64,000 nt of DNA, from NCBI GenBank assembly GCA_000091205.1, contig AP006500.2; one strand, given 5' to 3'. Made by a program: the position numbers and the translations under genes. The stretch comes from Cyanidioschyzon merolae. Taxonomy: Eukaryota. Below are positions 1-60,619 of the stretch, in pieces (position 1 is the stretch's first letter; every line of letters starts with the position of its first letter). The notes under the pieces are model-generated. The model saw nothing but the letters and a program-made list of their open reading frames with translations, searched no databases and was not told the DNA's origin.

Positions 1-3000
1 CCCCCCATTTCCCCCCATATCCTTCGACTCCTACAAGTCGCGATGCTGATTCTTGTCGTTGATTCTTTTAATGTCCCGCAGTCTCGTTGGCGTTGCTTTC
101 TCGATGTTTTTCTTTTCTGGGTTTATTTTTTGTTAGTTGTTAGCGCATTCTGGCAATCCAGTTACTTTGGAGCTGTATTCGATAGGCAACAGTGGTCACT
201 TGGAATCAACGCTTACCTTTGTTTGTACGCGACCCTAAATTTCGTAGCGGGCCCGTAAACAAAGCTCTAGCTTACTTGCGCCTTTGCCGTTACTACCCAC
301 AAAGTATTTATTTTGTGCAACTCCAACCTGTCTCAGTTGCCTCACGATAATTATGCTTGATTCTGTTTTCTTACGCCTTTTGTATCTCTTGTTCTCTTTT
401 CTTGGGCGTTTTTGTTTACGATTGGTTATCTAGCCTTTCTTGTACTCCCGTTCGGTGACATGTCCATGTGCTGATTTTCATCGAGGCTCTACGTATCCTT
501 ACCCATGGGCTACGGCTCGTCACTAATTTTTTATCGATTAGGGTGCTGTGGAGCGATTGGTTTCGGTCTGTGTCTTTTTTCTTTTCTTTTAATGTCATTG
601 CCTGGTGTGAGCCCTGTTTTAATTCCGGGGCTGCAATGCCAAAGACAGCATTTGGCTTGTACGTTTTGGATTATCTGTTGGCTTGCACCCAGCACGCTTT
701 GGGGCCCGCCTGGGGAGCCCAGGCTCCTCCGAGCACCCCCATGCTTTACGGTTTTGATGACTTTTTTTCCTATGACAATGCGTTATCTGGAACTGGCGAT
801 CTCTTTGTTCGGTGCTTCAGTACACTTTTGTCTTTGCTCGTTTTTGCGCCCAAAATTTTTTTGCAGCACTAAATATATGCATTTTTCTGTTGCGGATCAT
901 ATCAAGCATGTCGTACGTTCCGCGGCGTATATTCAGTATAGAACGTCTTCTCATATTCATCATGGACTCCAACGCATTGCGCTCTCTTTAATGTTTCTGC
1001 GCAAGAGTGTACGATTGCGGTGCTCTACGGAACGATACTGCAGTCTTGTGCACTACTTTATGTTCCGTAGACTGCTATTGGAAATTCACGTATGTCGCAC
1101 TAGTGCAGGTATTGCATCGACTGCGATCGACTCACCGATAATCCATATTGCTTGTGTTCCGCTTTCCACATAATCTCCATCGTAGGCCTCTGGAATCTGC
1201 AAGGGGGACAAACTGTACCACCAGGTATCTTTTGCCTTTCGGGCTTCAGATGCCAATCTCTGGAATAGATATCGAATGCTTCGTGGGCTCCTACTCTATT
1301 TGAGACTGGATATACTCGTTAACATACTGTGTCACCCTTTTCATGGGCAAGATAACGCACACTACCATACCGCTTAGGAAAATGCGTGGCAGCAAATATG
1401 GGCGCCCAAATTCACAAATGAACATTCAGTACAGGCGTATACTTTCATTCGCTTGTCATGAAAGCCTTCATCACCATCGTTGGATCTGCCTCCCTGGCCG
1501 CCGCTTCTCGAGAATCCGGAATCCTCGCTCCGATTCCGGTATCCTCTTCCTGGGATACCTCGATATCTGCTGTCGAACTGGATCATCACCAGAACCTCCT
1601 TTACATCGCCAGACTGCAAGCTGTTATCCAAGTTTTTGTGTTTGTGCTCGATGGCAGGCTGCTATCGCTGCACAAGATGCCTGGTCATGCATTTTCTAGT
1701 GGCGTACCCCTATCGATCCAAAATCACGATTCCAACCATCATTATGCAGACAGACAAGCTCTTTCGACCACTTTCAATATGCCAAGTCTATTGACTATGA
1801 CAAGCTACTGCGTTAGCGATCCATTCGCCACATCTGCAAGCACCTACTTCGTGGCCGCCACGAATGAAGCGTAAATTTGCTGTTCCGCCCGTCCACGGCT
1901 GGTACTATCTTTCGGCTATCATCATGACACCCGCGGTATCCTTTCTGCCTAGGGTTGCATCTAAGTTCCGTCGCACCGGTGCTCGCAAGCGTGCCAGAGC
2001 CCAACGCACGCCATCCCTTGCGACGCATACTACCCGAAGAAATCAACTCTTGCACCGTCTACAACGAAGAGCCCCGATCACGCCGGCTATTCTTGCCTTC
2101 CGTCTACACTCAAAGCGATCCTGGTCGGCACTGCAGGGTCTCGCTAGTTCAGGTCAGCATCCAGGTTGGCGTCGCTTTATAAGATCATGTCTGCGAAAAG
2201 CACCTCAATCCTTTACACTATTAGTCGATGGCCCCCGCTAAGATATAGCTGCGATGTCCATCACATGACGAAGACTTCGGCAACTATGGAAATCGTGAAG
2301 CTTGAGATCTTTTTTATTCGTTACATCTTATTGTGCATCTCGGTTTTTTTCTTAACCGAAGGACAAGTGTCCATTCATCAGCAGTAGATTCAATCATAGG
2401 GTATCTCGCAACGAACTTGCACATAATCGATAGGTACGGTTACAGAATGAGAGCTCCTAGGTTGCCTTCAATTCTGCTCGCCGTGCTGCGGTAACTCTCA
2501 CTTTGGCTAGATTCGCCCCCTGGATCTCGCTGTGCGCTCTATCTTGCCTGTACGCTTTAGCACGCTTGCGACATGTCCATGGTCTTACAGCGTACTTGCG
2601 CCCTCTGCTTGGAGTCATTTTCTCGACAACAAGCCCAAATCGGGGACTTGATCCCAACAGTGCGCTACAGTCGATTTTGGACACTTTTTGTATAACAGAC
2701 AGCAGGCAAGAGTCTGAGAACTTCTGAGGCGACCCTTCCGCATTTGGAGCAGGCAACATGCGCTTTCGATGCTAGAGCTGTACGTGCGCTGTGAGGCTGG
2801 TAGCTCTGCGACTTTCTTACTCAGCGACGCTGCTGCAGATGAAATGGATTCAGTGATATATACGCTTACCCTAGGAATACCGTATTCTGGTGAAATGTTC
2901 AGTTGCACGGATAGAATTGCACTTGCTCTGGAACTACTATTCGTGGGCAGAATCCATGCTAGTACACCAATCCTACAATGCTTACATCCCTTTGCGTCGT

Positions 3001-3237
3001 CGCAGCAAAACTCACTAGTCGCTACCTGTGCACCGGGTTTCCAGGGCAACGAAGGCAAAGGTTTGCAACCCACCGACGTCGCCGTAAAAGCAATATTCAT
3101 AGGCACGCTCGTGCTCATAGGAAATCATTCCTCTACGTTCCGAGAGAGATTCCCAGTCCAGTCGTTCCATGTGTATCGCCTCTGAATCACGGCCCATGGG
3201 CAGGATTTCAGAGTGCTCTCCGCGCACATCTGTAGCC

Positions 3238-10174: not shown

Positions 10175-12514
10175 CGACTAAAGTCGTTCGCGTACGCATG
10201 CATATCCAGTGAGAAATCCTTTTTTCGTTGCTGCACGAGTGATCGCCCGTCAATTGCACAGAGTCCGACTTGTAACTCCCGTAGACTGTCTAGCGTTAAG
10301 CGCATCGAGCACAAGCGCTCAATGTCTTATACAGAGACTAGGCAAAACTCGCAGTTTGCCGAGCAATAATCTCGTCAGTACTGGCCGGTAAGTGTTCCGC
10401 AATGCTGAGTTCAAAGATTACAATGATTGTTGAGGCACGTCGCAGCAGCTCACCGACGAATAACGTAGAGGAGGTACAAGGGACTTACTTCCGGTGGTAC
10501 GTTATTTTGGAAGCGTCTGCACGTCAGTTGGACACGTCACGTCTAGGGCGGGTCTCTCGCCACTACTGTGCACGGCCGGCGACAAAATTTTTCTTTTCAA
10601 GGTCATTTGTTGTTGGTTGTGTCGCTTACGAGCTCGCTGTACTGGTTGGACTCTTGAACTAATCTTATAAAGTAGATCGGAAAACAATATGTGCTTTTGT
10701 CGGATGCCTCGATCGTCCCAGGCGAGATGCAATGCTCAAACGTCGTGGCAGATATAGATGCTATATGTATGCTATGCTTCTGCCGAGATCGCCGGATCCG
10801 AAGGACGTACAGGACACCATAGCTTGTACAACGATGATAGCATGGAAATGACTTGAACTGGCATCAGACCCAGCCCATGACGCCGGATAGATGCAACTTT
10901 CAGGTCAGGTCCTTATTCCAGTGTCCGTGCGGCATGAATAACAAGCATAGGGATTAAAATTATATCCGTGGCCGGGAACACTACCGTACCTAGTTCGGTT
11001 ACGATCCATACAACAGCCGAAAATCCTATTGAGGAGAGTGATGCATACCTAATCCGCATGAGCGTAGGATACTACGATGACTACGCTTTTGATAGAAGCA
11101 TCGCGGAGTTTCGAGCCAGGTCTCAACATCCCGTCGTATGTCAGGGCGGTACTGCAATGGGGAGTAGCGTCGGCACCAGCGACAGAGTCTATAGCATGAT
11201 ATCGTTCTACGTGAGTTTCCGATCTACGATACTTTACTTCCGCTGCAGCGCGATGCGAACACGCATGAGCCACGGCGGCGTCGGACACGTGTCCTTCATC
11301 GATCGGTGAGGCGTCTCGCGCGGTGGACGCATTGTGCGCAGTGAGCGCATCTGGGAGATCGGGAAGTCACGTGACATGATGCGCATGCCGCCGTTGAAGG
11401 AAAACGCGATTGGGCTCAGTCGCGTGTTGTTCTACCGGAGAAAGTTGGATCTCCATCGAGGTCGTAAACAAGTGTAGTTATCAGTTCATTAGGTTCTGGA
11501 AATTCGAGCAAGTCTAGTCAAGTGTTTATCGCAGTACATGACAGAAGGGTTCAAAGAGCGTCCTTTTTCGAAAAAAAAAACTAAAAAAGGAAAGCTATGA
11601 AAAAACAAGTCGACGATCCTGGAGGCCCAGGGTCGCAGGCTGCCAGAAAAAATAATAAACAACAGTGACAAGTCCGGAAGAAAATGAAGAGAAGAAGAAG
11701 GACCGAAGGGGGGCCCTTCGTTGAAAGCTGCAAGAAAGACAACTTTACCACGAGAAGGTGGTGAAAGCCTTCCTTCTTGGACATATCAGACATCCCTGTA
11801 GGGAAAAGTTGCGAGACGCTATCGAAAAACGTGTCGACTCGAACTCCATGACTACCGTAAAGGCGTCGTCAGGACTTATGCATTTGGTGAGGGAGATGTG
11901 TCGCGACGTGATGCGCATGGAAACGGTCGAGATTCCGGACGAGTTTCATTGATACGATCTTTATTCGTCACCTGATTTTTGGTACAGAGGAAGCGCGGAA
12001 GGAAAACGAGCTGGTGCATGCTCTCCACGAAAAACATCCCTTTTACGGGCTCGAGAGTACTCCATACAAGTGAGACTGCAGTAATTACATCTACGGAACG
12101 ATGAAGTACCTCACGAACCTGACGAACCATTGACAATGAACCTCGAACTTTTCATAATACGCGCCGTGTTTGGACGTTACCCGAGCGTCTCTCGCAAAGG
12201 GGATATGGGCGATGATCAATTGCATCACGAAAGATCGAAAGTATGAAGATATGGTCGACTTTGTTGACAAGAAGGCGTCGAAAGAGAGCACGAATGAAGC
12301 TACTGTAATCCGTGCGGTTGTACATGAGCACTGTTTAGTCTTGGGGCTGGCGAATCCAGCGGAAATGGCATCATATATAGAAAAAAGATGAAAAAAGATG
12401 TTATCACCTCATCTTGCTCTATTTCGTATTCCTGAATCGAGTACGCGAACGCAAGGCAGAGATGAAGCCTAGTGAGGAGAACATGAAGCGTGGGGGAGAC
12501 GGAAGGCGTCCCTA

Positions 12515-12823
12515 ATGCGTAAGCGCTTCAATGGCGCTCCGTTGTGCAACATCAAGTCATATTTTGTGAGCATCGACTTTAGAAACCTTCACGGCATCAT
12601 GAAGGAGATCAGTCCCGAGCTCGATGTTAGCAGGGAGGACTTCAGCGGCGAAAACTGGCAGACGTACTGGAAGAGTATCTTCGATTTCAAACGTCTGAAA
12701 GTCAGCAAACAAAAGGTATTCGTGGGGAGATCGAACAGATGGAATAACCTTGTGTATGCACTATCGGCGGTTGAAGAGAGATCATCAAGTTCCTCCCTCG
12801 GCTGCGCCCGTGACGAAGGATGA
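12515..12823 (+). pseudogene. N-terminal module of the TnpB/Fanzor-like protein (copy 1 fragment).
   Basis: [41 protein letters not shown] aligns with copy 2 [41 protein letters not shown] (42918..43127). Confidence 0.5.
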
Positions 12824-13568
12824 AGATGAGATGGAGGCGGATCCTGCAACGCAGAAAGTGCAGGATAACGAGTTCATCGTTGACGGGGCGAAGGATGAAA
12901 ATGAGAAGGGGGCGGATCCTGCTAAGCAGGAGGTGGAGGATAACGACCTTGTTGTTGACACGATGAAGCATGAAGATAACAAAGAGACGGGTCCTGCGAC
13001 GCAGGAGGTGGAGGATAACGACTTTATTGTTGACATAACGAAGGATGAGGATGAGAAGAAGGCGGGTCCTGTGATGCAGGAGGTGCAGGATGACGCCTTT
13101 ATGGTTGGCGCGGTGAAGCATGATGAAAACAACAAGGCGGATCCAGCGACCCAGAAAGTGCATGATAATGACTTTATCGTTGGCGCGGACCCCGGAAACA
13201 CAAATATCATCACCATCGCAGCACCGAAGCGTGCGGGCGATGGTGCTGATGGTAACTTACGTCAGAAAGACATGCACCTTTTGAGGTTCTCGAGAGCGAG
13301 ACACTATCGAGAATCGGGTATAATGAATGCGAGGAAGAAAACTGAAACATGGAAAGCAGGAATAAAGGATCACCCGGAAGCTTTGAGCGAGGCGACGAGC
13401 CGAGGAGCGGACTTTGAAGCTTTTCGGAAATTCGTGGAAGTTCGTGTTGCTCATTGGGATGCGCTGTGGGAGGCGTATACCAAGCCACAATGGGCTCGGT
13501 TGCGAATCAATCTATACGGTGGGAAGCAGCGGGCGTTCGCCAACTTTTTCAATCAGTTGAGCGCCTGA
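12750..13568 (+). pseudogene. TnpB/Fanzor-like RuvC module, copy 1 fragment: RuvC-I region plus a 5x 75-bp in-frame repeat expansion, then truncated by a frameshift.
   Basis: ..[67 protein letters not shown] is collinear with copy 2. A 1-nt loss near 13566 shifts the frame. In-frame TGA and TAA follow in the continuation (13454..13648 and beyond). Confidence 0.55.
12830..13195 (+). repeat. Tandem 75-bp coding repeat (about 5 units), present only in copy 1 of the element.
   Basis: A repeated peptide of about 25 aa, DPATQKVQDNEFIVDGAKDENEKGA, and variants. Copy 2 has a single unit ([21 protein letters not shown]). Confidence 0.8.
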
Positions 13569-13753
13569 AGGAGGATGATAGTCGAAGGCTGGTAGTGGCA
13601 TACGGAGCAGGGCGCTGGGTGCCCAAGAAAGGAACTACTCCAGCTTGAACGACGATGGTGTAAAAGGAGTGCGCAGTACGTTTCGTAACGATACCTGTAG
13701 ATGAGTTTCGAACGTCCTATATACACCATGAACTGGGGTGTACACTTCAGAGC

Positions 13754-14098
13754 GTGGAGATGGAAAAGTGCCAGCGGAGCCTTGAGGATGTAAAAAAGTA
13801 TGGACCGCTGACGGAGGAGCAAATGGAAAGGAGGGTGGAAGTGCGAGGGCTACTCGCATTGATTAGTATGATCAATGGCAAGAAACGTATGGAGTTCGTG
13901 AACCGAGACTTTAATGCCGCTATCAATATCAGGAGATGTGCGGTGCTGGAGAAAAGACCTCCAGAGTCGACAAGAGGGAACTTTGTTGGACAACCTCTCG
14001 AAGTGGAACTATATGAGAAAAAATTGGAAGCAGTCATGGGTGGCCGGTCGAGAAAGACGGGGAGGCGTCCGCACTCCAGTTGGAGACGTTTTGTCTAA
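13754..14098 (+). pseudogene. C-terminal fragment of the TnpB/Fanzor-like protein (copy 1) containing the RuvC-III motif.
   Basis: ..[34 protein letters not shown].. carries the hallmark TnpB/Cas12/Fanzor RuvC-III signature RDxNAAxNI. It aligns to copy 2 ..[34 protein letters not shown].. Confidence 0.6.
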
Positions 14099-14373
14099 GG
14101 CGCGTTCGCCGCCACTAATGTACACCGCTGGCGACGGCGGCGTTAGATGCGTGCCACGTGGCACTCGATACGCGCTCTGCAGGGGGTCTTCGGGATTCGA
14201 GATGCGAGCTCCATGACACGTTGCAGCGGATCATGCGTGACGTGCGCTCGCATCTTTCTGATGCCCGCGACGCCGTATGTGTGTTTTCCCGCCTTTATAA
14301 CACAAAGCACTGCTTATACTCGCGTTACTAAAAGTGAGTTTCCTTCTAGGCACCAGCGAAGACGTGGGAATCA

Positions 14374-19809: not shown

Positions 19810-22715
19810 AAATGATCTCGAGTGCACTGCACGAGCAACGAGCATGTGACTCAGTGCGACCTGGTTTAGTGTTGATACGACGGCAACTCAGCTCGTTGAG
19901 TTCGTATTTGGGAGCTCGCCCGAAGCCCGCGTTTGCTCATCGGTTTCATGGAGGTACACATCGACGGCGTGCACCGAACAGCCTGCCAATTAGACTGGCT
20001 TGTCTCTTGACTTTGCGAAACGGAACCGTCTTACGTCTGTAGAAGAACTGGCGCCGGAGCTGTATACCACACGCGTCAAGAATCGCGTAAGGAATTCGCG
20101 CTCGATGCAGGAGCAGTGTGTTGGAGGCCTGGTAAACAGTTTTCCCAAGGCACAGCAATGTGTCAGTCTCCGGAAGCGGACTAGATCGTTCTGGCTGATG
20201 TATTCACAAGCCTGAATATGGGTATGAATTCTGTGGCAAAAAGGACGGTAGAGATCAATCGCTGTCGCGGAGTCTCGACACAGAGGGCCCTCGAAAGTGT
20301 GCGTGCACGAGCGCACCCATGTACTTACGAAGGAACGTACGCGCGCACAGAAAAGCTCGAACGAATACACGTACGCGCAAACGTACGAATACACAAGCAC
20401 ACGAACGAATCTGCACATGTGTGTACATCCAAAGAGATACGCGAACGAATGCGTTACTGCGGTATGACGTACGCACCAGCGATATCCGGTTGCTTGAGGC
20501 GGTTCCGAAACGAGCATCTCACAGGCTACATGAAGGCTCCGTGGCGAGCCTGTATGTGCGAGAGCCCTCCCAAAAGTCTCCATGTTTAGAGGCCTGGTGC
20601 CGAAAGCAACGGCCGAACCGCCTAGATCTCAGATGTTTCATGGGAAGAGGAGACGTTCGAGCAGCAGATTACCTCGCGGGATCGCTTTGCTGCTACGACC
20701 TCGATCACAGATCAGGGCATATCCTGCGCCTCTTCGATAGCACGGCGACTAGCCTGACTCACGTCTAATGCGATCACTGAATTCGAGTCAGTGTTCGAAG
20801 GATTGCATCCTAGTACCCAGTGTGGTTGTATGCGGTTAGGTTTGTGTACTGGGTGCACGTCTCGCCGATTGCGAGGAGTCTGCGGTGCAGCCATAATTGC
20901 CACATACATTGCGCTTTCAGGATTGCGAGCAGCGTGAACGCAACGGCATGATGCTCAGCGTGCTTGATCGAGCAAGCACCAGCTGTATCCGATGACATTC
21001 GGTCTCGTTCGTTGGATCACTAGGCTTGGCACGTGCAACGATCAATCTCGGACCGCATTCCGAAGCCTGCACGATCGCTGAGCATTGACAATCATGTTTG
21101 AAAAACATGGAACACTTCCTTTAGCTCGTGCGTGTACTCTGAAGGTTTGGTCTCTTCGACCTTTCCTCGAAATCAGCCTTTGCGCGCTATTTCTGTGAGT
21201 GCTTGCCTATTCTGTGCCGTATCTCACTCTTTGAATACGGCGGTCTCTCCTGCATCTTCAGCTCCATTATCAGTGGTCGACGAATGTTGATGGCAGTGTT
21301 CAAGTCCCTATGTCGCTGCTTGCGGCTGCTGTCAGCAAATATCATGCAAATGCGCAAGTCATGATCTATGCTTCGCTTGCGATTTCCATCTTTCTTGTTT
21401 AGAGCCTCGGTGCGCCTGTAGGAACTGTGACGCTCGGCCGTGGACAGGTATTCCCAGATACGTGCACCGCGCCTGCTCCTCTGAGCTCCCCGTTGTCGCG
21501 CCTGAAGGATTGCTTCACCGCATGGTACATGCCCTTAACGGGCACAGAAGGATGCACTGAATCCACCGGTCTATTTACGCGCCGTACGTCGTTGCCCAGC
21601 ATCACGAGCTTCGTCTGGGCGATCAGCTAGGCAAGCACGCCGTCCGTTACACGTGAACGAGCACGCTGTTCCATTCGATAGAGGATTTGTGGAATGCGAT
21701 GTTGTCCAGGATGAAAAAAGTACCCAAAGCGCTATGCAATCTGGAGAACAAGTCGAAAGATTTTATCCGTCTGGGATTCCTCCATGTGAAGCGGTGACGC
21801 GCGCTGCACTGGAAGCGATTGCTGAGATATCTAAAGTCCGAGTCCAGACCCTTTTCCATGTGAATATTAAAGACGAAAGCCTCGAGTAACATATCCCCTG
21901 AGAAGACTCGTTTAGCTATTACATATCGTTTCTCCAATGGCGTCAGAGGGATCTCAATTTGTGTCTCTAACTGAATCTATTCATTGATGACAAGAGTTGA
22001 ATAATTTTTCTGCCTTCGCTTGCGATCAAGTCTTCAAAGGACGTCGCCGAGTAGCTTTTCGTATCAATGCAGTGGCGCGAATCGTTGCGCCCACGAGTTG
22101 CATTGAGACAGAGCTCTCAAAATCTTGAAGTACGCTTGAGTTCAGCATGCTAAATATAAAGAAAAGGATGAGGTGAATGCTTGAACGGTTTCATTGGATG
22201 ATGATATCAGTTGTTTTACGAACCCTTCCTCGAGGACGTCGCAAATCATCTTGACCTCGGTGATTTGTCTAACGCCAGCGACTAGGATTCGAAGGAGCAA
22301 CTCCCAAAAGACGACTGGGAATCCTCAGTCTGCGAATAGAGACTTTAAGCTCTATATCCTGCACGCAGAATGTAGACGATTCACATCTAAGCGACAATTT
22401 CGGAAAAATGAAAAGTCGGGAAGAGAGCGAGTTGTTCATTTTTCCACTTTAACCTCACATGATCTCCCCCGAGAATCATTGGCCAGTATCGTTGAGCACA
22501 CTTACGGTAACAGGACCGCAATGGGTGGATCTCTCACCCGCGAAAATAAAACGATAGCCGATTGAAGCAGGGGGTGCGTATCCGGCGCCACAAGCTTCAA
22601 GTGCTCGGAGTGTCAACATCGCGGCAATGTTCTTCTTCCCCAGTTCGGAGTCAGAACCTGTTGCTCGTGTGAAGCAGTTACACTTCAAGCCGATGTTGCC
22701 ATACGTGCAGCAGAT

Positions 22716-24860: not shown

Positions 24861-27800
24861 CGTACGGGCGACTCAAAAAGGTTGTGCAACGTCACAAAAG
24901 GCTCGTAACGCACGGCGGCACCGGCCCGAGTCAGTGAATCCTATGCCTTCGATCAGAAACTAGGACAATGCACGTGCTCTCACAGCAGCTCGACCAGAAA
25001 TACCCACAAGTTCTGTCCCAGCAAGAGCAGTCTCTGCCGACGGCTATAGACGCAGCCGCTGAGCGACTCGCACCGCAGCTGGGGCCGGATTACGCTGCGG
25101 CCGTTCGAGGGCCTCGGCTACGGAACGAGGTCCGTCGGCGAAAACTTTCATCGGTTTGCGAGTATCGTAGAACGCTTCGTATATCAGCGAGAGCGCATGA
25201 TGTGGTAGTGTAAAGCCTGCTGCATACAGTATCTGAGCATTCGTGTTGATGATATGTCCAGTGCACAGTGTCCGCGAGGGTGTGGTCCAACGTTATGCTC
25301 GCTGCACAGGAATGCATACGAGACATACGCAGCAGCAGATTCCAGCCATGAATCGCCATTACTATTGACCGTTGGCCAGGAAAATCGTTCCATTTGTAAA
25401 CGCGGAGGTCGGGATTTGATGAACTGCTGAACGGTGTTGTACCAATGGCTTGTTCCAGGCGAGTATCCAATACCCACTCTCCGGGGCGAAGACTTCCCCA
25501 TCGAAAGCCCTCTGTAATTCAGCGCAATATGCGCATCAAATACTGAACGATTCCCTGAAATATTCGCATAAAGACAGAACGGCCGAACGCCCCAGGTGCA
25601 CGAAGTATTTCCCAGTATTGCTGAGACGGTCAAGTTTCGGTGCAAAAAGTGCTTGCGTGCATATTGTCGCTGCTGGAATGACACTGTGTCACGCCCTGTT
25701 GTGTTCGATTGCCTCGCCTTCTAGAGTTCAGTCACCGCACGGTGCACCATCTCGTGCATTCTGTTCTTCTCCATTCTCTTCTTCTCTACAGGTTTTACCG
25801 TGTGCTCGTGGACGTGCTGCGTGTATGTCGTCCTAGACGCATCGACGGGAATCCTGCACGCTCGATTCTTCCAGGAACTGAACGCGCTCTTTTAAGGAGC
25901 ACGAGTGCAGCCTTTGCGTGCCACAGCAAAACCAGCGCAGTAGGCTAACAGCGAACGACACGACAAATTAGCTATTTCCCTTTCAGAGTTGTTGAAGAAC
26001 TTGGCGAATGTACGCCTCCTGTCCAGACACAGCCAGAATCGATGACGATCCTAGTCCGATCTCGCGCATACCAGTTGAAAATCGTCCACAAGTCATATTT
26101 GGGCGCGCATATGCTATCCAAAAGCGCGGAATCCCTTCCAGCGGTCTCACTCTTCCGGGGCGCTGAGACGGGGCTGCAACGGGTACGTGGTTCGTCTCAT
26201 AAAGCACTCTCCACTGACCCGCATATGGTTTATGAGGTTGGGTTGGGGCGCTTCGGCACCGAAGCTGAAGACTCTTTTCATATCCGTCTCTTCAAGGTAT
26301 CCAGCGAAGCGCGTCTGCATATCTCTGATCCTATGTGCAGGTCGTTTTGTACCTTCTGTCCTGAGCATCAGTTCTCGTTCGAGGTTTAGGCCGGAAAATT
26401 CCAAGGGAAATTCCAGTCGCTGGCAGGGTGCATCAGGAGCTCCGACAATCGCTTTTTTGACGCGACACCGTTGGGCGAGAGAAGCTACGCGATACCAATT
26501 AGAGTCCTGAATCTCATTTTCTGGAAAATTCTCCCCGTAGATAAATTATAAAGTGCCTGGCAATCGTTTCAGACCAAGGTTTCCGCTCCGACATTTTTCC
26601 TTCCTCTCACTACTTCTCGTATTTTCGGAGAGATGTTTCCCTACTTTTTCCCGATATTTCTCCTCGCTCTCTTTTCCCGTGTCCTTTTACTTGGCGGGTT
26701 GCGAGGACGTGTTTGCCGTAGAAATCATGCGTTTCCTCCGTGGCATTCAGGCATACTGTTTCGACGGTGGCATGAAGCTCGGCTTTACGCTTGAGTATTT
26801 CTCTCCTATGCCGCAAATGCCGTATCGTCAACTTTGCTGCCTCGAGCCCGCCCGTGGACCCAATCGCGCCATTTCGCTGGCCCCCACGAACGAAAAGGCG
26901 AGCACCAGAGCGGCTCAGTACTGGTGATTGTTGAGAACGAGTTGTAGCAGAATCATTCATGGAAGATCTTCGGTGCCCTGAACACGAACGATGCGTCCAT
27001 GGATCCGTTTGCGCATAAATGCCGCTTGACATTAGAGAAGACGCGTTCGACTGAATTGATCCCTGAGGAAAACCTGACCCGAAGAGCAGCTGAATGCAAA
27101 TATCAGCAGCGTATACCTCGACCGATTTTGAGTGTTGAAATGCAACGTTGGCTAGGAGCAGGATATGAACATGTGGGAAGCAGAAGCGAAGATGAGCTTT
27201 CAAGAACGACGGGATTTTGAGCGATTCCGGCCGATTAGCTATTTACGGGCGCCCGCAGCACGGAATCGCCGCTACGGCTGACACTGTCGCCATGCTTTCT
27301 CGTCTCTTCTTTACGAACAGCGGTTTACTGGTATTTGAGTTCCCATGTACAGGTCTAGCAACGCTTCCAAATGAAGTTTCATCGAGTCCAGTGGACACCT
27401 GTCCGTACTGCACTGAGCGTTCGCATTCCATTACGGAATCGGCCAGGAGCTGCTCAACGCGCGGCGGTCTCTCATCCGAGCGCACTTCTATGTTTACCAT
27501 CCATGTCTCAGCGTCAGCATATCTGTCAATGGTACGGAAATTGCACATCTTGTAGCTTCTCTGCGAGTGCTTCTTAAAGAACGAATGGCCAGGAGCGGAT
27601 CGAAAAGCAGAGAGTCATTTAGACATTGTTTGATAAAGTCTGTTTCGAATGCACAAAATTCAAGATGAGGGCGAGGAGAAGAGTTAATCATCCACCCGCT
27701 CACCGTAGAAAGACTGTCTCAGACGAGTAAACCCGTTTTTCGCAGCCTAGCAGTGACAGCGTCAACTCTTTTCGAAAACCTTTTGGAATGCGGAGTACAC

Positions 27801-28538: not shown

Positions 28539-31174
28539 GAAGACCCTGGGCTATTGAAAAGCTAGAACTAGCGCCTCTCGACCGGAGGTGCGAGCGCAAA
28601 TCGGTACGAGTTTCGAGCGTATGGCGCATCCAGGATGACTACGCGGGTGAAGCCGTTGTTAACGCTACACGCGAGGCAGTGATACGACATTCATGTGTGT
28701 ACGTGTGTTGTGTGACTGTGTCTGTGTAGGGTATACGCTGCAATCGTGTGGGCTGCGGGTATTCTCCGATATACGCTAGCCCGCTCCACTTGCACCGACA
28801 GAAATGCGCTTTAGCTTAGCATCTATTGTGCAGATTCTTGTCGATATGCAGCACCGACGATGCGGGTTCGGCGAGATGTCCAATGGAAAAAGCTCCGGAT
28901 CACGGCCCCTATTCGGATGATTCTCAGCGGTATGTAGCACGTGTGAGATGTCCCATGGGAAATGATACAGTGTGGCAGTTGAGTTTTGCGGGCGCGGTGA
29001 CACTTCACCAGAAAAAGAGCGGGGTCATCGAGGACCCCACGAGATCGAAGCAAAATTTGCCCTGGCTCTCTCGACAAATAGGCGTACAAACTGTTTCTTA
29101 AGTAGCTTGATTAGCGAAAGTGGTACCTGCACTGGATTCATTGGAAAAGATCTCCGCAGACAATTCGAAAAGCTGTCTTGCTCGATGCTCCGATCAGCGT
29201 TGGTACATATCGCCGGCGATTTCAACCTTGTCCATCTGGAATAGAATCACTCCAGATCGCAGGTGCCTCGTCATGTAGACGGGCTGGTAGGGCAATCATG
29301 GTCTTCACCGCGTGGCCGGTGTCTCGATGATAGGTCGTCGCCAACGATGAGAACGCCCAGGCCATTGGCATTTCGGCACTGCAGGCTTGTGTGGTTCGCC
29401 AGTGCCCGCTTGGGAGGCTGCGATGGGTTCAGGCGGGCCCTATCCATGAGATGCACTCCAACGACGTGCATCGCGACGCCGAACGCCAGCTGCGTATCAC
29501 CAAAGCTGTCAGACAAAGATGTAATACTAAAATGCTCGCTCTGTTCCTTGTTTTCGACTTTTTGAAATTTGCTTACATGTACGGCCTCGATATTCGAAAG
29601 CATCAATAAGGACCTAAAGACCGTTACGTAGTTTGAGGATTCTCGCACGTAGTTTCGGAGTTGGCCCATCTAAGCTTCGCCGACGGAATTCGTTACGTCA
29701 CTGGAATCATGCTGAATCGCGGCGCCTCGACCAAGGGTTCATAAACGAAACGAGATTCTCGTCCTGTTCATACGTATATGCCTCCATTCATTTTTGTTCT
29801 ATGCTTGGAGCTTGCTCAAATCAAGCAATCTTCAAGTTCACGATCTGTCCATTGCGAGGCAGCCCGTGGGCCCAGCAACACGCGCCGCTAATTGACGAGG
29901 AAAAAAATCGGTGTCGTCCATTGACGGCTTCTTCTTCAGTGATTCATGCCGAAAGATCACTAAACAATTCAAGTCAAACAATCAACTTCTTTTGAACCAA
30001 AAATTTTCCTCCATTTGTGTACACTGAAGAAGCGGCGTTCCATGGCTGCATGTAATGCCGCTGTGTGATATGCTTCCAGGTGCTCCCGTTTCTCACGTTT
30101 ACATGGAAAAGAGCCCTGGACTCGGCCTTCAATCATCGCAGCAATCACTTCGAGTAGAAAAAGAGTCATCGCTTTGCACAGAGGGCACGTGTACGCATCA
30201 AAATTTCTCGACATTATCTCCGAACTGGATTCCCCATCCAATACTTGTTCCTTTATGACCAACATTGTCTTTCACCAATCCTCCATCGAGTCCAACAGCG
30301 TGCGGTCGACTACACACCGGACAGAGTACCAGCCGAAGAGAGAGCCCATAACAAGTCCGCGATCGACGGATACGGCTATGCACAGAAACCGAGGTGGACA
30401 TCGACGGGAGCCTTCTGTACCCGTCGAGGGCATGTTTCGAGCTATGAATCCAGCGTCCACGTGCCACAGGCCCGAGCCCGGTCGACGGAGTTAGCTGGAC
30501 ATACGCGAGCATCTGACCACAGTCAGGTGTCACCGCTGCGACGCGCGCATTGAGACAGTACACCAGAAAGCCGAGCATGGCAAGCAATGCGTGGATTTCA
30601 ACCTCTGCCGGTGCAGGACATGCGTGAGCAACATCCAGAAGCACCAAAATCGGGACTTGAACGCTGCCATCAACCTCATTCGACTGCTAGCCATGGAGCT
30701 AGAGAGATATATAAGAGACCTGCGAACGGGAAGCCGGAGATAAGACAGAGAAAAAGGAAGCAGTCGCCGAAAAGAAAAGCCCCGGAAGGCGGCTGTTGAT
30801 GACACTGGGAAGAGACCCAAAGTTTAGAGCGCATGCCAGCGTCAAGAAAGAGGTACCCGTTCCGTTTCATTCTGAAATGGGTACATGTCCTGCGAACGAA
30901 GAGGAAATTCCACTGGAGCACCATGTTCCGGCTTCCAGCGATCGCTGATTGATCCATTTGCTAGCCGATTTACGCGTTTGATTCGAGTATGCAAGCACCC
31001 GATGGCTTCAGTGCCGAACGCACTGCTTTTTTGATTGTTCAAGAAGGGCTCTGCCTCCAAACAGTAGCGAATGCGACGTTCGTTCTTCCACAGACGCCCT
31101 GCATGCAGTCACCGCAAGTCCACATAAACGATACGCGGTTTCCCAGGATGCTGCATTTTGTCAGAGCGTTCGAA

Positions 31175-36794: not shown

Positions 36795-37450
36795 ATACCA
36801 GTATGAAGAGGCGCGAAAAGTCATTCCAGGAACCGGCCTTGAATACCCGAACATCCACCATACCAGAATGAAGAGGCACGAAAAGTCAGAATGGTAGTGT
36901 GCCCTATGTACCCGAACATCCACCACACCAGATTGAAGAGGCACGAAAAGTCAGAATGGTTATGTGCACTACGCACCCGAACATCCACCATACCAGTATG
37001 AAGAGGCACGAAAAGTCATTCCAGGAACCGGCCTTGAATACCCGAACATCCACCATACCAGAATGAAGAGGCACGAAAAGTCAGAATGGTTATGTGCACT
37101 ACGCACCCGAACATCCACCATACCAGTATGAAGAGGCACGAAAAGTCATTCCAGGAACCGGCCTTGAATACCCGAACATCCACCGATACCAGAGTGAAGA
37201 GGCACGAAAAGTCAGAATGGTTATGTGCACTACGCACCCGAACATCCACCATACCAGTATGAAGAGGCACGAAAAGTCATTCCAGGAACCGGCCTTGAAT
37301 ACCCGAACATCCACCGATACCAGAGTGAAGAGGCACGAAAAGTCAGAATGGTTATGTGCACTACGCACCCGAACATCCACCATACCAGTATGAAGAGGCA
37401 CGAAAAGTCATTCCAGGAACCGGCCTTGAATACCCGAACATCCACCGATA
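36795..37450. repeat. Tandem array of about 5 copies of a 131-bp unit made of two related subunits of about 65 bp.
   Basis: ORF-track peptides starting MHYAPEHPPYQYEEARKVIPGTGLEYPNIH recur at 37094, 37225 and 37356, giving a 131-nt period. Both subunits share cccgaacatccacc(g)ataccag.(a/g)tgaagaggcacgaaaagtca. Confidence 0.85.
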
Positions 37451-37542
37451 CCGAAATGCAGCGCGACGCGTCCAGGAAAAAATCGCGGCGATATCGAGGC
37501 ATCCGTTGCGTACAAGCAGGTGGAGGTCGCTCTCCAGGAACG

Positions 37543-39369
37543 ATGTTCGTAGCTTTACCAAGTGTGCTGTTCACCAGCAAACCCTCAAGGATACGTACTG
37601 TTAAGATTGAAAAGCGTAGAACGTTATTTGCCTGCGACAGGGCGAAAGCAGGCACCGATGGGAACGCTAGCAACGCTGCGGCGTCAGCACCGAAACCCTC
37701 TGCTGCGAGCAGCGGGCGATCTGCTGGTACTGCAGCTCGAGACCAGGTAACGATCAGTGCCCAGACGAGTTCGTCAAACTCGCGGACGATAGATCGAAGC
37801 ACCGATTCATCGCAAACAGTACAGGTTGCGTCCATGTTTGACTCGATGACGAAGCGCCGTGAGGCTGCTCGCCGCGAGGCGCTGAGCATCGTCGTGCTGG
37901 GCGCGTCCGGGGATCTGGCCCGCAAGAAGACGCTCCCGGCGCTTTTCTCACTCTACTACCACGATCTGCTGCCGAGCGACTTTTATGTGGTCGGCTACGC
38001 ACGATCAAACATGACGAGCGAGGCGTTCCGGAACACGATCAAGTCAAGTTTGACCTGCCGCGTTATCGAAGGCCCCGAGTGCGCACGCAAAATGGAGCAT
38101 TTCCTCTCGCGTTGTTTCTACGTTTCCGGAACTTATCATGAAACTACTGCATTCCGAACGCTGGACGAGTTTCTCGTGAACGAGTTTGAGAAAGAGCGCT
38201 GGAATCGCGGGGTTCCGACCAATCGCCTCTACTACTTGGCGATTCCTTCCAACGTCTTCGCTGAGGCCTGTCGCGGCATCGCCCATGCCCACACCAAGCC
38301 TCCGGAGTCGACCAAGGGCTGGATGCGGGTCGTCTTGGAGAAACCGTTCGGGAGAGATCTGGATACCTTCCAGACCCTGCACCAGGAACTGCAATTGTAC
38401 ATTAGCGAGGAACAAACCTTCCGCATTGACCATTACTTGGGCAAGGAGCTCGTTCAGAACGTGCTGGCGCTGCGCTTTGCGAATTATTTTTTGGAGCCTC
38501 TCTGGAACAACCAACACATCCAATCTATCCAGGTGACGTTCAAGGAGAACTTTGGTGTCGAGGGACGCGCTGGCTACTTTGACCAGTACGGAATCATCCG
38601 CGACATCATGCAGAATCACCTGCTGCAAATGGTGGCGCTCTTTACGATGGAACAGCCGGCTTCTTTGAACGCCGAAGATATTCGTGACGAGAAAGTGAAA
38701 GTCTTGCGCAGTTTGGAAACGCTACGTGCTACAGATTTCGTCATCGGGCAGTATATGGGGTATCGGGAGGAAGACGGCGTTCGTCCGGGCTCCAAGACGC
38801 CTACGTTTGCAGCGTGTCGGATGAACATTCGAAACCGACGCTGGGACGGTGTACCGATCCTGGTCAAAGCGGGGAAGCATTTGGATGAACGCCTCGCGGA
38901 AGTGCGTGTCACGTTCCGCAGTGTGCCTGGTAGTATTTTCTCGCTTGCGAATACCCTGCCGAACAATGAGCTTGTTGTTCGCGTTCAGCCCGACGAAGCC
39001 ATTTATCTTCGCATCGTCAGCAAATCCCCGGGGTTGACCTCTCGCCTAGAAGAGGCGCGTCTGACGCTATTCTACCGGACGGCCTGGGAAGAAGCGCACG
39101 ACATTCCCGATGCCTACGAGCGCCTCATCTTGGACGTCATCTATGGTGACAAATCGCTCTTCATACGAAGCGATGAATTAAAAGTCGCCTGGGAGAAGTT
39201 TACGCCGGCGCTTCACGAACTCGAGCAGAGCGACCGCTATCGACCGGTACCGTACGTAGCGGGCAGTCGCGGCCCTGCCGAAGCCGACTACCTTGCCGCG
39301 CGCTACGGATGCGTTTGGGCCAGCGACCTTGACATTGGCGGCAAGCGACTGCAAAGCAAGGTGCCGTAA
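37543..39369 (+). CDS. G6PD: Glucose-6-phosphate 1-dehydrogenase, probably the plastid-targeted isoform. The listed ORF 37225..39369 extends 5' into the repeat array; the start is more likely ATG 37543 or 37456.
   Basis: LSIVVLGASGDLARKKTLPALF..GYARS (NADP-binding), the exact active-site motif RIDHYLGKE, then ..QNHLLQMVALF..MEQP.. The N-terminus is MFVALPSVLFTSKPS.. followed by a Ser/Ala/Thr-rich presequence. The stop is TAA. Confidence 0.85.
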   Translation: MFVALPSVLFTSKPSRIRTVKIEKRRTLFACDRAKAGTDGNASNAAASAPKPSAASSGRSAGTAARDQVTISAQTSSSNSRTIDRSTDSSQTVQVASMFDSMTKRREAARREALSIVVLGASGDLARKKTLPALFSLYYHDLLPSDFYVVGYARSNMTSEAFRNTIKSSLTCRVIEGPECARKMEHFLSRCFYVSGTYHETTAFRTLDEFLVNEFEKERWNRGVPTNRLYYLAIPSNVFAEACRGIAHAHTKPPESTKGWMRVVLEKPFGRDLDTFQTLHQELQLYISEEQTFRIDHYLGKELVQNVLALRFANYFLEPLWNNQHIQSIQVTFKENFGVEGRAGYFDQYGIIRDIMQNHLLQMVALFTMEQPASLNAEDIRDEKVKVLRSLETLRATDFVIGQYMGYREEDGVRPGSKTPTFAACRMNIRNRRWDGVPILVKAGKHLDERLAEVRVTFRSVPGSIFSLANTLPNNELVVRVQPDEAIYLRIVSKSPGLTSRLEEARLTLFYRTAWEEAHDIPDAYERLILDVIYGDKSLFIRSDELKVAWEKFTPALHELEQSDRYRPVPYVAGSRGPAEADYLAARYGCVWASDLDIGGKRLQSKVP

Positions 39370-39973
39370 AAACCAGACAGTCCGACTTCCGCCTAGTCTG
39401 GATCGGAGGAGTTTCCAGATGCCCTGGCGATTCCCGAATCCCGGTCGGCGCCTACGAAGCCTACCATCAAGCCGGGCATGCACCGCGAGTAGTCGACGCG
39501 CACAACGCGCTCTACGAAAATCCAAAAGCTCGCGGCACCAGCACTTTACAGCCACAAAACTTGTCTCATGAAAGCGGCGAATAAAACCTCTGTCATCGTC
39601 ATCTGTGAATGTACGGGTGAGGCATCGCGGATCGCGCAGCACAGAACACCTCCACGAGATACACCAGTGAATCGTCGCGATAGCACGTCCGGCTGTGATC
39701 TTTTCGGATACACACACAAGACATGCACTGATGGATTCGCTCAGCGGATACCGCTCGACATGCAATGCCCAGTGCCTGCATCCATTCGTGAACGACGCTC
39801 ACACCTGCACTACGCAACAAGCATCAGCGAGACTTGCGATTCGCCACGCAAAGGATGTACCCGCATTGCCGAAATCGTAGCCGCTATCAAAGTGCAGCGT
39901 TCAACGCATGAAAAACGACTCCGCAATTCCAGTCTATCCTTTTGCTGCATCAACAGTCTCGTTTCGGAAGCGA

Positions 39974-41527
39974 TCAAGCAGGTTTGAAGAATGCCCGAGC
40001 GAGCTGGCGGCGCAGCCAGCGCAGCCACGAGAGCGATCGCGGCAAGCCGAGGCCTCCAAGTGCTCGGAAACGAAAATTGTTCATCGCTCGATTGTACTGC
40101 ACATTGCGGATCCAGGCGGTTGCAGCACACCAACTCCAGCGCTCCGCCTCGCGACGAGCAGCGTCGCCCATCCGTTTGCGCATGACGGCATCGCCGAGTA
40201 GGGCACATACATAGGTTGCAGCCTCGCTGGTGTTGCCCTTGGTGTACAGAAATCCTGTCTCGCCGTGAACAATCAGATCGGGGATACCGCCAGCTGCTGT
40301 GGCAACTACAGGCACACCCGATGCCATGGCCTCCAGTACCACAAACCCAAGGGTTTCGCTCTCTGAGGGCATCACAAATACGTCGGCACAGGCGAATGCT
40401 CGCGATAAATCATCGCCGTGTAGTTGTCCGGTCATGACCACGGGCAGACCTGCGAAATGTCGCCGTACCGTCTCGGCGTACGGTCCGTCACCGACGAAAG
40501 CGAGTCGCGTTCCGGGTGGACAACAGGTGAGGATCCGCTTCAAACTCAGCAGATTCTTCTCGGCACCGAGTCGCCCGATGTAAACCAGCAGCGGCGCGGT
40601 AGGATGGCCATCTGTGAGCCGCGCCCGCATCGCACCACCATCATCGTTGCGGAAACGCGGATGGAAGCGCTCCGTGTTGATGCCTTTTCGCCAGAGGTCC
40701 ACGCGCTCGATGCCGTGTTGTCGAAGTTCTGCGCATATCTGTGGAGACGTCGCCAGCGTCAGGTCTGCGCGATTCAAACAGAAACGCATGAGTGTCCACG
40801 CCAGTCCTATGAGAATCCCTAACCCATAAGTTTTCGCATACATTGGTAGATGTGTGTGATACGATGCAACAAGTGGCTTGCGCAGAACACGCGCCATGAG
40901 AAGGATGGCAAATACCAGGAATCCGGGTGTTGCCAAGTGGATGAGGTCAGGATCGAACTCGCGAACGCGCTGCAGCAAACTGCGCCTTCCGAAAACCATG
41001 CCACTACCAAAGCCGATTGAGAGCGTAATGCGTGGATAGAGTGCAAACTTGAAACCCCGGATGGTTATAACCGGATAACCGAACACTTCTTGCGGTGCGT
41101 CCGGCGAGTTATCGGGGGTTATGATCAATACCTCGTCGCCGGCCTCTTTCAAATACCGTAATAGCTCATTAAAACGATTCGAATACCCGGACACGTGCGT
41201 GAACGGCGTCGGTTCAACCACGAGACACACTCGACGCCGAGGCGCGCGCCGCAGGTCAACGAGGTTCGGGTCATCGCCCGACGTCGGCTGCGGGTACACG
41301 GGACCAGTGGCGACACTCGCCAGTGCGAACGCGCAGCTCGTCCGCGGTACACCCGGTGCCCGCAGCCGGACTGGCGCATAGCGTCGCCTCAAGAGAGCAA
41401 CCTCTAAGGGACACAGCTGCGAGCCGTTTGATGGCGCGCTCTGCCGCCTCAACGTCCGCGCGCACGCGAAAGCGCCAGTGTCCCCGTTGTTAACGCCCAG
41501 GAATGCCGCTGTTCGACCAGTGAACAT
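39974..41527 (-). CDS. SQD2: Sulfoquinovosyl-diacylglycerol synthase (SQD2-type GT4 glycosyltransferase) with an N-terminal presequence.
   Basis: RVCLVVEPTPFTHVSGYSNRFNELLRYLKEAGDEVLIITPD..FGYPVI. The match continues through ..YHTHLPMYA..ADLTLATSP.., ..RLAFVGDGPY.E.. and ..GDDLSRAFACADVFVMPSESETLGFVVLEAMASGVPVVATAAGGIPDLI, collinear with plant SQD2. The N-terminus is MFTGRTAAFLG.. The stop is TGA. Confidence 0.85.
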   Translation of the reverse strand: MFTGRTAAFLGVNNGDTGAFACARTLRRQSAPSNGSQLCPLEVALLRRRYAPVRLRAPGVPRTSCAFALASVATGPVYPQPTSGDDPNLVDLRRAPRRRVCLVVEPTPFTHVSGYSNRFNELLRYLKEAGDEVLIITPDNSPDAPQEVFGYPVITIRGFKFALYPRITLSIGFGSGMVFGRRSLLQRVREFDPDLIHLATPGFLVFAILLMARVLRKPLVASYHTHLPMYAKTYGLGILIGLAWTLMRFCLNRADLTLATSPQICAELRQHGIERVDLWRKGINTERFHPRFRNDDGGAMRARLTDGHPTAPLLVYIGRLGAEKNLLSLKRILTCCPPGTRLAFVGDGPYAETVRRHFAGLPVVMTGQLHGDDLSRAFACADVFVMPSESETLGFVVLEAMASGVPVVATAAGGIPDLIVHGETGFLYTKGNTSEAATYVCALLGDAVMRKRMGDAARREAERWSWCAATAWIRNVQYNRAMNNFRFRALGGLGLPRSLSWLRWLRRQLARAFFKPA

Positions 41528-42917: not shown

Positions 42918-43127
42918 GTGATATGCAACATCAAGTGGCACTCTGCGACCATCGACTCCAGTGTCCGTCATGGCATTATGAGGGAGACCAGCTCCGAGTT
43001 CGATGTAAGCAACAAGGAATTCACAGGTGAAAACCGGGAGACGTACTGGAAGTATATCGTAGACTTGAAACGTCTCGAAACGGGCAAGAAAAGGCATCCA
43101 CGGAGACGATCGAAACCGATGGTGTAG
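42918..43127 (+). CDS. N-terminal module of the TnpB/Fanzor-like protein (copy 2). It is in a different frame from the RuvC ORF and may be joined to it by splicing or frameshifting.
   Basis: Homologous to copy 1 12515..12823. It ends with TAG at 43125-43127, immediately 5' of the RuvC-frame ATG at 43130. Confidence 0.45.
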
Positions 43128-43129
43128 CC

Positions 43130-44119: not shown

Positions 44120-44326
44120 TTGGTGGCCCGTCGAGAAAGACGGGGAGGCGTCCGCACACCAGTTGGCGACGCTATATCTAACACGCGTTCGCCGCCACTA
44201 CTGTACACCGCTGGCGACTGCTTGCGACCTTTGAAAAGCTTTCGGTCGACACGAAACACCCCTAAAAGGCGATACCGTACATCCCTAAGCAACTCGATAA
44301 AAGATTTGCAACCTCCCAGCGCACGC

Positions 44327-60469: not shown

Positions 60470-60619
60470 TGAACAAGCACGTGTTCGTTAGAGCAACGAA
60501 GCAGTATGGACACGTGCGTGGTGTGTGCCCCGTGATCGCTACGCTTTTTCGACGCAAAGCCGCAACGACCTGCTCCAGGCGAGCGGCGAACGCCCCAGAC
60601 GTACAGTGCTGGTGCGAGA

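Follow-up and report, generated by a model that had tools for sequence, protein, structure and literature searches.

Two CMe-1 Fanzor1 elements in a 64-kb stretch of the Cyanidioschyzon merolae genome: a probable dead, nearly full-length copy and an internal-deletion derivative

We analyzed a 64,000-nucleotide stretch of contig AP006500.2 (GenBank assembly GCA_000091205.1) from the red alga Cyanidioschyzon merolae. The stretch, here called the window and numbered from its first letter, carries two copies of a Fanzor-like element on the plus strand. An earlier note, made from the letters of this DNA alone, had described copy 1 as a longer, degraded paralog of copy 2. Window open reading frames (ORFs) include exact matches to the C. 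merolae 10D proteins BAM82305 (sulfoquinovosyltransferase), BAM82303 (UDP-sulfoquinovose synthase), and BAM82307 (TOR kinase). Other host genes encode G6PD, choline kinase, and a bicarbonate transporter. The genes are typically eukaryotic and intron-less, with TOR, for example, encoded by a single ORF of 2737 aa. Because of these exact protein matches and gene features, the sequence surrounding the two copies is the nuclear genome of C. merolae.

A Fanzor1-carrying repeat family of C. merolae, CMe-1A, was described by Bao & Jurka in 2013 (Mobile DNA 4:12; PMC3627910). For C. merolae, their survey recorded just this one Fanzor family, with ~150 copies that are each ~80% identical to the consensus. 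The 3169-bp consensus lacks terminal inverted repeats (TIRs), its target site duplications (TSDs) were left undetermined, and it encodes a single-exon Fanzor1 protein of 734 aa. The 5′ 635 bp are common to another repeat, TE-N2_CMe (PMC3627910). We aligned the consensus (Additional file 2 of that paper; the CMe-1 protein is in Additional file 3) to the window with blastn. On this alignment, copies 1 and 2 are assigned to the published family, and their divergence fits the reported ~80% identity of its ~150 copies. The earlier note had suggested a Fanzor1-sized ancestor of about 750–800 aa, and this ancestor is the CMe-1A consensus.

Copy 1 matches consensus 660–2196 at 11345–12888 (79% identity) and consensus 2117–3151 at 13109–14139 (87%). 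Its core runs from 11345 to ~14139–14150 and opens with a leader (11345–11596, consensus 660–905), common to about a dozen loci, upstream of an ATG at 11597. Pairwise blastn within the window, a check that the earlier note had proposed, aligns copies 1 and 2 at 13111–14135 and 43191–44218 (83.5% over 1033 nt, E 0) and at 12432–12783 and 42809–43163 (74%, E 4e-32). A more sensitive blastn setting adds 11442–11763 against 42523–42841 (64%, E 3e-26). These blocks bear out the paralogy at a level well above chance and leave ~670 bp of copy 1 (11764–12431) with no counterpart in copy 2, close to the ~700 bp first estimated. Both elements had been drawn too narrowly, with copy 2 spanning 41779–44239 rather than 42600–44250.

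We followed the coding frame of copy 1 by a frameshift-aware alignment of the family consensus protein against 11400–14300. From the ATG at 11597 to 14095, residues 1–834 align with 629 of 827 identical (76%), and tblastn agrees. With the TAA stop at 14096–14098, the segment 11597–14098 reads as a CMe-1 Fanzor1 pseudogene collinear with the whole protein. The frame is broken by eight frameshifts (near 11660, 11944, 12131, 12205, 12380, 12483, 12731, and 13563) and by four in-frame stops (11722, 12071, 13646, and 13661). Copy 1 is unable to make the protein because of these 12 disabling lesions. The earlier note had listed three kinds of damage. Two of them hold: a 1-nt loss at ~13563–13564, where copy 1 reads GAGCG-CCTG and three other copies read GCGCCCTG or similar, and the TGA at 13646 and TAA at 13661, where relatives have CCA and TAC. 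However, they are only part of the total, and the third, an expanded 75-bp repeat, is addressed below.

The three RuvC motifs of copy 1 read GADPG, DEFRTS, and NRDFNAAINI, so that the Asp-Glu-Asp triad is kept. RuvC-I (GADPGNTN, 13182–13205) aligns with DPG of the Fanzor1 protein PpFz1 of Parasitella parasitica and DPN of SpuFz1 of Spizellomyces punctatus. RuvC-II (DEFRTS, 13700–13717) aligns with DEFRTS of PpFz1 and DEYKTS of SpuFz1. RuvC-III (RDFNAAINI, 13904–13930), which had been reported as intact and is, aligns with the NRD of both. The corresponding catalytic residues of SpuFz1 are D383, E541, and D606 (PMC10432273).

Copy 2 (41779–44239) is a CMe-1A element with both published ends and an internal deletion. 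Consensus 1–1037 aligns at 41779–42807 (78%) and is joined directly to consensus 1736–3168 at 42808–44239 (86%). The missing part, consensus 1038–1735, is 698 bp and not a multiple of three. The junction at 42807/42808 reads ...CACAAGCTG/TCTGAATCGAG..., and the consensus has CTG at each edge of the missing segment, which is consistent with an internal deletion mediated by microhomology. Different internal deletions are seen at other loci, with consensus 1–688 joined to 1334 in one and 1–423 joined to 1399 in another. At 99% identity to window 39448–47979 and with the copy 2 structure, two metagenome contigs (L012 and L016) are orthologs of the locus and not independent insertions.

What copy 2 retains is a 329-aa ORF (43130–44119) that starts inside the WED/linker region. 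The earlier view of copy 2 as an internally deleted derivative with an open RuvC module is upheld by the consensus alignment, with a mutated third motif. RuvC-III (43988–44014) reads REFNAAMNI, in which a GAC to GAA change at 43991–43993 replaces the catalytic Asp with Glu (GTGAACCGAGAATTC in copy 2, GTGAACCGAGACTTT in copy 1). Furthermore, the WED part is frameshifted, and the last ~40 codons of the ORF are out of the family frame owing to a frameshift near 44057. Activity of the 329-aa RuvC product is unlikely because of the Asp to Glu change and the WED frameshift.

We next consider codon positions. In the RuvC half, differences from the consensus at positions 1/2/3 amount to 7.6/7.6/20.5% in copy 1 and 7.3/7.0/19.2% in copy 2. 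The N-terminal half of copy 1 shows a weaker third-position bias (17/17/22%). Because the RuvC-half differences lie mainly at third positions, the sequences indicate that most of the divergence arose while the ORF was under purifying selection before insertion, and that post-insertion decay was minor. This agrees with the remark of Bao & Jurka on the long-lasting coding capacity of the family (PMC3627910).

The retained bias and the three intact RuvC motifs could also suggest that copy 1 is a working gene whose lesions are removed by introns or programmed frameshifting. We assign this only a very slight probability. There are eight frameshifts and four stops over 2.5 kb, and they are single-nucleotide events at sites where relatives are intact. 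Relatives encode the same protein uninterrupted, with ORFs of up to 722 aa, the C. merolae genes in the window have no introns, and selection that acted before insertion accounts for the codon bias. Alternatively, the 329-aa ORF of copy 2 might encode a RuvC protein, truncated or domesticated, that has its own function, with copy 1 as its decayed relative, as the open frame, its third-position bias, and the 99%-identical ortholog in L012 and L016 might indicate. This is improbable, if somewhat less so than a working copy 1. The ORF lacks REC and WED, has Glu for the RuvC-III catalytic Asp, and leaves the family frame before its end. Its codon bias equals that of the dead copy 1 and so points to family history, and the ortholog is too close for a test of constraint.

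Searches of protein collections place the family among Fanzor1 proteins. With the 329-aa ORF as query, a large collection gave 230 relatives, all from environmental assemblies, and the N-terminal region of one of these relatives, P0089, gave 142 proteins. P0089 joins both halves of the protein, and its N-terminal region matches the ORF pieces of the span found only in copy 1. A profile search of 1.84 billion representative proteins gave 1616 relatives, 312 of them at E < 1e-30 and many intact at 600–700 aa. A profile named A4, made from 64 diverse relatives plus two CMe-1 members (P0194 and P0180), matched PpFz1 (9cf0, E 1.3e-19), SpuFz1 (8gkh, E 1.8e-11), and GtFz1 of Guillardia theta (9cer, E 2.4e-5) among PDB sequences, with no further PDB match beyond these three Fanzor1 proteins. 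In these matches, DPG, DEFRT, and NRD.NAA.NI line up with the RuvC motifs of the solved structures. Narrower queries were less productive: phmmer with the 329-aa ORF and a close-family profile (A1) each returned only noise from the PDB. Neither Pfam nor NCBIfam had a meaningful match for the window ORFs, or any to TnpB, and Pfam found nothing on long family members. A precomputed PF26935/DUF8286 label was set aside as weak and uninformative.

For the fold, we modeled P0275, a full-length relative that is 42% identical to CMe-1 and collinear with it, using AlphaFold2 (predicted local distance difference test score, pLDDT, 87.9; predicted TM score 0.86). A Foldseek search of the PDB shows that the closest structure is SpuFz1 (9ceu), with an E value of 4.7e-18 and TM scores of 0.61/0.69 over 691 columns, followed by PpFz1 and GtFz1. 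Cas12f and Fanzor2 structures are far behind at E ~1e-4 and TM ~0.2 (Fanzor2 9b0l, E 7.9e-4, TM 0.20). Judged on this modeled relative, CMe-1 is predicted to have the Fanzor1 fold, WED-REC-WED-RuvC/TNB, with a large REC domain.

These results also bear on whether the elements are instead of the prokaryotic TnpB/IS605 type or the Fanzor2/IS607 type, present through contamination or recent transfer. A few distant relatives do give sub-threshold matches to Pfam Cas12f1-like_TNB (PF07282, E 0.0023–0.09). However, the best matches in both sequence and fold are the three Fanzor1 structures, with Fanzor2 and Cas12f 13 orders of magnitude worse. A protein of 734 aa with a large REC is Fanzor1-like, as opposed to compact proteins of ~400–500 aa, and genes on either side of the copies match C. 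merolae nuclear genes exactly. Among the window ORFs, there is no TnpA-type transposase or recombinase in or beside the copies. The chance that the elements belong to either of these types is close to nil.

We then asked what the span missing from copy 2 encodes. The two ORF pieces at 11758..11952 and 12170..12391, which the earlier note had put forward as possibly coding, are two open segments between copy 1 lesions and align with family proteins (e.g., P0089) as well as with the published CMe-1 protein; they are remnants of coding sequence. The span (11764–12431) corresponds to CMe-1 residues ~45–277 and to P0275 residues ~44–285. In the P0275 model, this region contains a strand (49–57), helices at 66–102, 115–128, 138–146, 161–194, 200–210, 245–255, and 267–271, and the start of a helix at 275–296. 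In SpuFz1, K25 belongs to WED, 96–269 to REC, and R291 to WED again (PMC10432273). Because the P0275 model aligns with SpuFz1 nearly end to end, these domain labels lead us to infer that the span is WED strand 1 plus most of the REC domain.

The earlier note had itself raised the possibility that the extra sequence is an unrelated insertion, for example of another repeat. On this reading, the 670–700 bp would sit in a short Fanzor-like gene, and copy 2 would have the original form. It is true that Pfam and NCBIfam find nothing in the two ORF pieces and that the sole long open frame sits in copy 2. Nevertheless, the published 734-aa protein, more than 140 family proteins, and intact distant relatives of 600–700 aa all have a collinear counterpart of the span, and the span falls on the REC helices of a confident Fanzor1-like model. 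Relative to the consensus, copy 2 has a clean deletion junction, and no separate copy of the span occurs elsewhere in the window. The copy 1 frame alignment, the consensus blastn, and the collinearity with P0275 refute the insertion, to which we give practically no weight. We conclude that copy 1 is a dead, nearly full-length CMe-1 Fanzor1 copy and copy 2 an internal-deletion derivative, with a probability of roughly 93%.

Copy 1 also carries a tandem array of a 75-bp (25-aa) unit at 12812–13182, in the linker between WED and RuvC-I. Tandem Repeats Finder reports a period of 75, 4.9 units, 76% matches, and a score of 371. The earlier note had counted this expansion as a break, which we do not find: since the array is in frame and is also present in relatives with long open frames, it is a length polymorphism of the linker and not damage. 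Relatives carry one to ~6 units (e.g., P0001 and the 722-aa ORF of contig L011), and copy 2 has a single unit at the array site and no tandem array. In the P0275 model, the site is a disordered loop (residues 394–405, pLDDT < 50) between the WED sheet and RuvC strand 1, a placement that accounts for the tolerance of variation in length. The number of units changes the protein size from 734 aa in the published consensus, with one unit, to the ~834 aa that the protein of copy 1, with five, would have. The Fanzor1 size that the earlier note had proposed for the ancestor is supported.

The L011 ORF belongs to an environmental relative (L011:2463–4631). Its 722-aa open frame covers CMe-1 residues 53–699, including the three RuvC motifs, and contains four linker repeats. 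A single frameshift interrupts the basic N-terminal tail, and the stop lies 34 codons ahead of the usual end. Natural Cyanidioschyzon populations therefore harbor near-intact CMe-1 copies.

The ends of the elements were compared across 80 related loci from hot-spring metagenomes, retrieved with a single C-terminal consensus sequence as query. We aligned 76 right ends, folded the hairpins sequence by sequence, and drew statistics from 54 distinct copies. The 3′ end is constant across loci and consists of the stop codon, a short GC hairpin, ACTACTGTACAC, and a long terminal hairpin; examples are window 14099–14150, window 44180–44250, and L037:1650–1720. Across the 54 distinct copies, the median number of pairs in the terminal hairpin is 13, with several base-pair types at most stem positions. 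Pairing is kept in its two main variants, ...CGTCGTTCGA-CTT-TCGAACGGCG... and ...AACGTTTTTC-TTTT-GAAAGACGTT.... The copy 1 right end (14099–14150) has the short GC hairpin (GGCGCGTTCGCCGCC), the conserved ACTAATGTACAC, and what is left of the terminal hairpin after a deletion of ~19 nt from the stem-loop; in copy 2, the hairpin is degenerate. The published consensus breaks off within the 3′ arm of this hairpin and so seems to lack ~10 nt at its right end. No Rfam family or tRNA was detected in scans of the window. The right-end structure is likely an omega-RNA scaffold or a cis-acting transposition signal, and we treat it as a candidate for either.

The left ends are more variable. The earlier note had described both ends as shared; the left region is shared only from consensus 660 onward, and the 5′ modules upstream of that point differ. 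Copy 1 gives no blastn match to consensus 1–659, and copy 2 has the TE-N2_CMe-like part. In its place, copy 1 has an alternative 5′ module at 10651–11344 that is unrelated to the TE-N2_CMe part and common to non-syntenic copies. Its extents vary, with matches starting at window 10651 (L080), 10693 (L054), 10767 (L008), 10798 (L003, a contig end), 10888 (L083), and 10916 (L081). By this architecture, copy 1 represents a subfamily that belongs to CMe-1 but does not have the "A" layout. The 5′ ends fall into at least three types: some copies have the 659 bp resembling TE-N2_CMe, some start at consensus 648–664, and some have the copy-1-type module, whose start varies. For the second type, about a dozen independent loci begin to match at window 11329–11351 (consensus 648–664). 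Additionally, 5′-truncated CMe-1 pieces of 96, 504, and 930 bp are present, and a pyrimidine-rich tract lies just upstream of consensus nucleotide 1 in complete CMe-1A copies.

A solo CMe-1 right end lies at 10509–10616 (plus strand), ~730 bp upstream of the copy 1 core and immediately upstream of the alternative 5′ module. Its first part, at 10509–10600, matches consensus 3073–3164 (blastn, 81.5% over 92 nt, E 4e-18), and the rest completes the terminal hairpin. The fragment matches the 3′ ends of many metagenome copies and folds as a long hairpin. Two metagenome contigs (L036 and L052) show the same arrangement. Their upstream flank matches the window at 85–86%, but the downstream flank does not; these contigs may be orthologous to the copy 1 locus or may carry copies of some larger composite unit.

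Several points weigh against our interpretation of copy 1 and copy 2 and of what their family does. The confident fold model is of a 42%-identical relative and not of CMe-1 itself, and an AlphaFold2 model from the shallow alignment A1 reached a pLDDT of only 40.7 and was discarded. CMe-1 lacks the Cys pairs of the TNB zinc ribbon, reading THHELGC...EKC...LLALVS where PpFz1 and SpuFz1 have CxxC...C...C. The wider family has a single conserved Cys (LLWC) there. The loss is a degenerate feature within the clade that does not contradict homology. RNAalifold on a plain MAFFT alignment of the right ends recovered only three pairs, since the hairpin variants, two in number, do not line up in it, and the covariation was counted after separate folding, without control for phylogeny. 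At the 5′ boundary of complete CMe-1A copies, we found no duplication in a search for a TSD or target motif, and TIRs are absent. Finally, what we propose on the omega RNA, the target-adjacent motif (TAM), and cleavage is carried over from other Fanzor1 proteins, whose identity in structural alignment is only 12–15%.

An intact CMe-1 element encodes one intron-less protein of ~734 aa. From the N-terminus, this protein has a basic tail, WED strand 1, the helical REC, and the WED sheet; a disordered linker, in which the 25-aa repeats vary in number, then leads to a split RuvC (D, E, D) that bears a degenerate TNB insert. The Fanzor1 proteins characterised so far are DNA endonucleases that depend on a TAM and are guided by an omega RNA, which comes from the transposon right end with the 3′ flank as guide (PMC10432273, PMC11423790). 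By homology, the intact CMe-1 protein is most likely an RNA-guided DNA endonuclease. Its omega RNA would come from the right end of the element, reading out into the flank, and cutting at target sites that lack the element would favor its being kept or copied. For CMe-1, we infer the activity as a nuclease, the omega RNA, and the way of moving from its characterised relatives. Neither window copy can act as an RNA-guided nuclease, because copy 1 is a pseudogene and copy 2 has no REC and a mutated catalytic residue. Copy 2 lost its REC region through the microhomology-flanked deletion, and in copy 1, the damage to the terminal hairpin adds to the coding lesions.

The conserved terminal hairpin, the constant 3′ and interchangeable or truncated 5′ ends, and solo right ends such as 10509–10616 raise the possibility that transposase-less CMe-1 elements spread by the right end alone, through one-ended copying by either omega-RNA-guided homing or a rolling-circle-like process. 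We regard this as speculative and rather unlikely. If true, it would be a one-ended copying mechanism so far undescribed for Fanzor1 elements and, together with two further decayed families in the window, would mean that the repeats of this very compact eukaryotic genome are dominated by Fanzor1 elements.

The first of these two families has three copies with 58–62% nucleotide identity, at 21104–22450 (minus strand), 29515–30861 (plus), and 62355–63657 (plus). Each ends in a Fanzor1-like RuvC-II/III piece detected with a hidden Markov model (HMM) of A4: 21190–21534 (E 6e-4, RDLNTAINIRR), 30495–30740 (E 1.4e-6), and 63298–63645 (E 3e-3). Upstream, each has an "LDNxxFHxSxIxxN" piece, one with a sub-threshold match to Pfam DDE_3 (E 0.035), and the repeat may go back to an old element of the Tc1/mariner type that carried a Fanzor1 gene. 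The second family, a very decayed Fanzor1-like repeat, has two copies, 25549–27600 (minus) and 46355–47700 (plus), with a mutual nucleotide identity of 57–65%. Using tblastn, P0275 residues 62–208 match 26542–26135 and residues 523–663 match 26047–25619 at 26–33% identity, and the HMM matches 25724–26545 and 47365–47514 (E 1.6e-3). The window also contains two long tandem arrays (~91–97% identity) unrelated to the Fanzor elements, one at 36795–37455 at the 5′ part of the G6PD ORF (37225–39369) and one at 60622–61806 in an ORF at 60525–61901.

Both the family and the 734-aa protein have been in the literature since 2013, so our finding is already known and adds little. Our analysis does anchor the window repeats to a named family, corrects their boundaries and lesion count, and identifies the copy 2 deletion as a loss of the REC domain. 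It establishes family identity, collinearity, lesions, fold, and a conserved right-end hairpin structure. Possibly beyond the literature are the conservation of the right-end hairpin, the alternative 5′ module, the linker repeat polymorphism, and the extra old Fanzor1-like families. These side observations could help in the search for the omega RNA or the mobility of transposase-less Fanzor1 in a thermo-acidophilic alga.

Among known systems, Helitron-type and other one-ended elements resemble CMe-1 in lacking TIRs and detectable TSDs, in their 3′ palindrome, and in having 5′ ends that vary or are truncated while the 3′ end stays constant. This is a resemblance only: CMe-1 has no Rep/helicase gene, and its published consensus has no TC...CTRR end. 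Fanzor1 genes do occur inside Helitrons of Chlamydomonas (PMC3627910). The TnpB/OMEGA systems of IS200/IS605 and IS607 share a homologous RuvC core, and the same right-end guide RNA logic would be expected; the CMe-1 right end has conserved hairpins. However, CMe-1 is about twice the size of TnpB, has a large REC and a eukaryotic nuclear host, and gives weak fold matches to Cas12f and Fanzor2. The solved Fanzor1 proteins SpuFz1 (8GKH, 9CEU-9CEZ), PpFz1 (9CF0-3), and GtFz1 (9CER-T) share with CMe-1 the fold, the domain order WED, REC, WED, RuvC/TNB, and the aligned RuvC D, E, and D, and all lie in eukaryotic transposon-like repeats with a non-coding right end. They differ from it in that structural-alignment identity is low and that CMe-1 has a repeat-bearing linker and no TNB Cys pairs. 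The closest system is CMe-1A itself, which is of the same organism and the same sequence family as copies 1 and 2. Copy 2 matches both of its published ends. Copy 1 has another 5′ module than the TE-N2_CMe-like 659 bp and five linker repeats where the consensus has one, but it matches consensus 660–3151 at 79–87%, and its conceptual protein is collinear with the published 734 aa.

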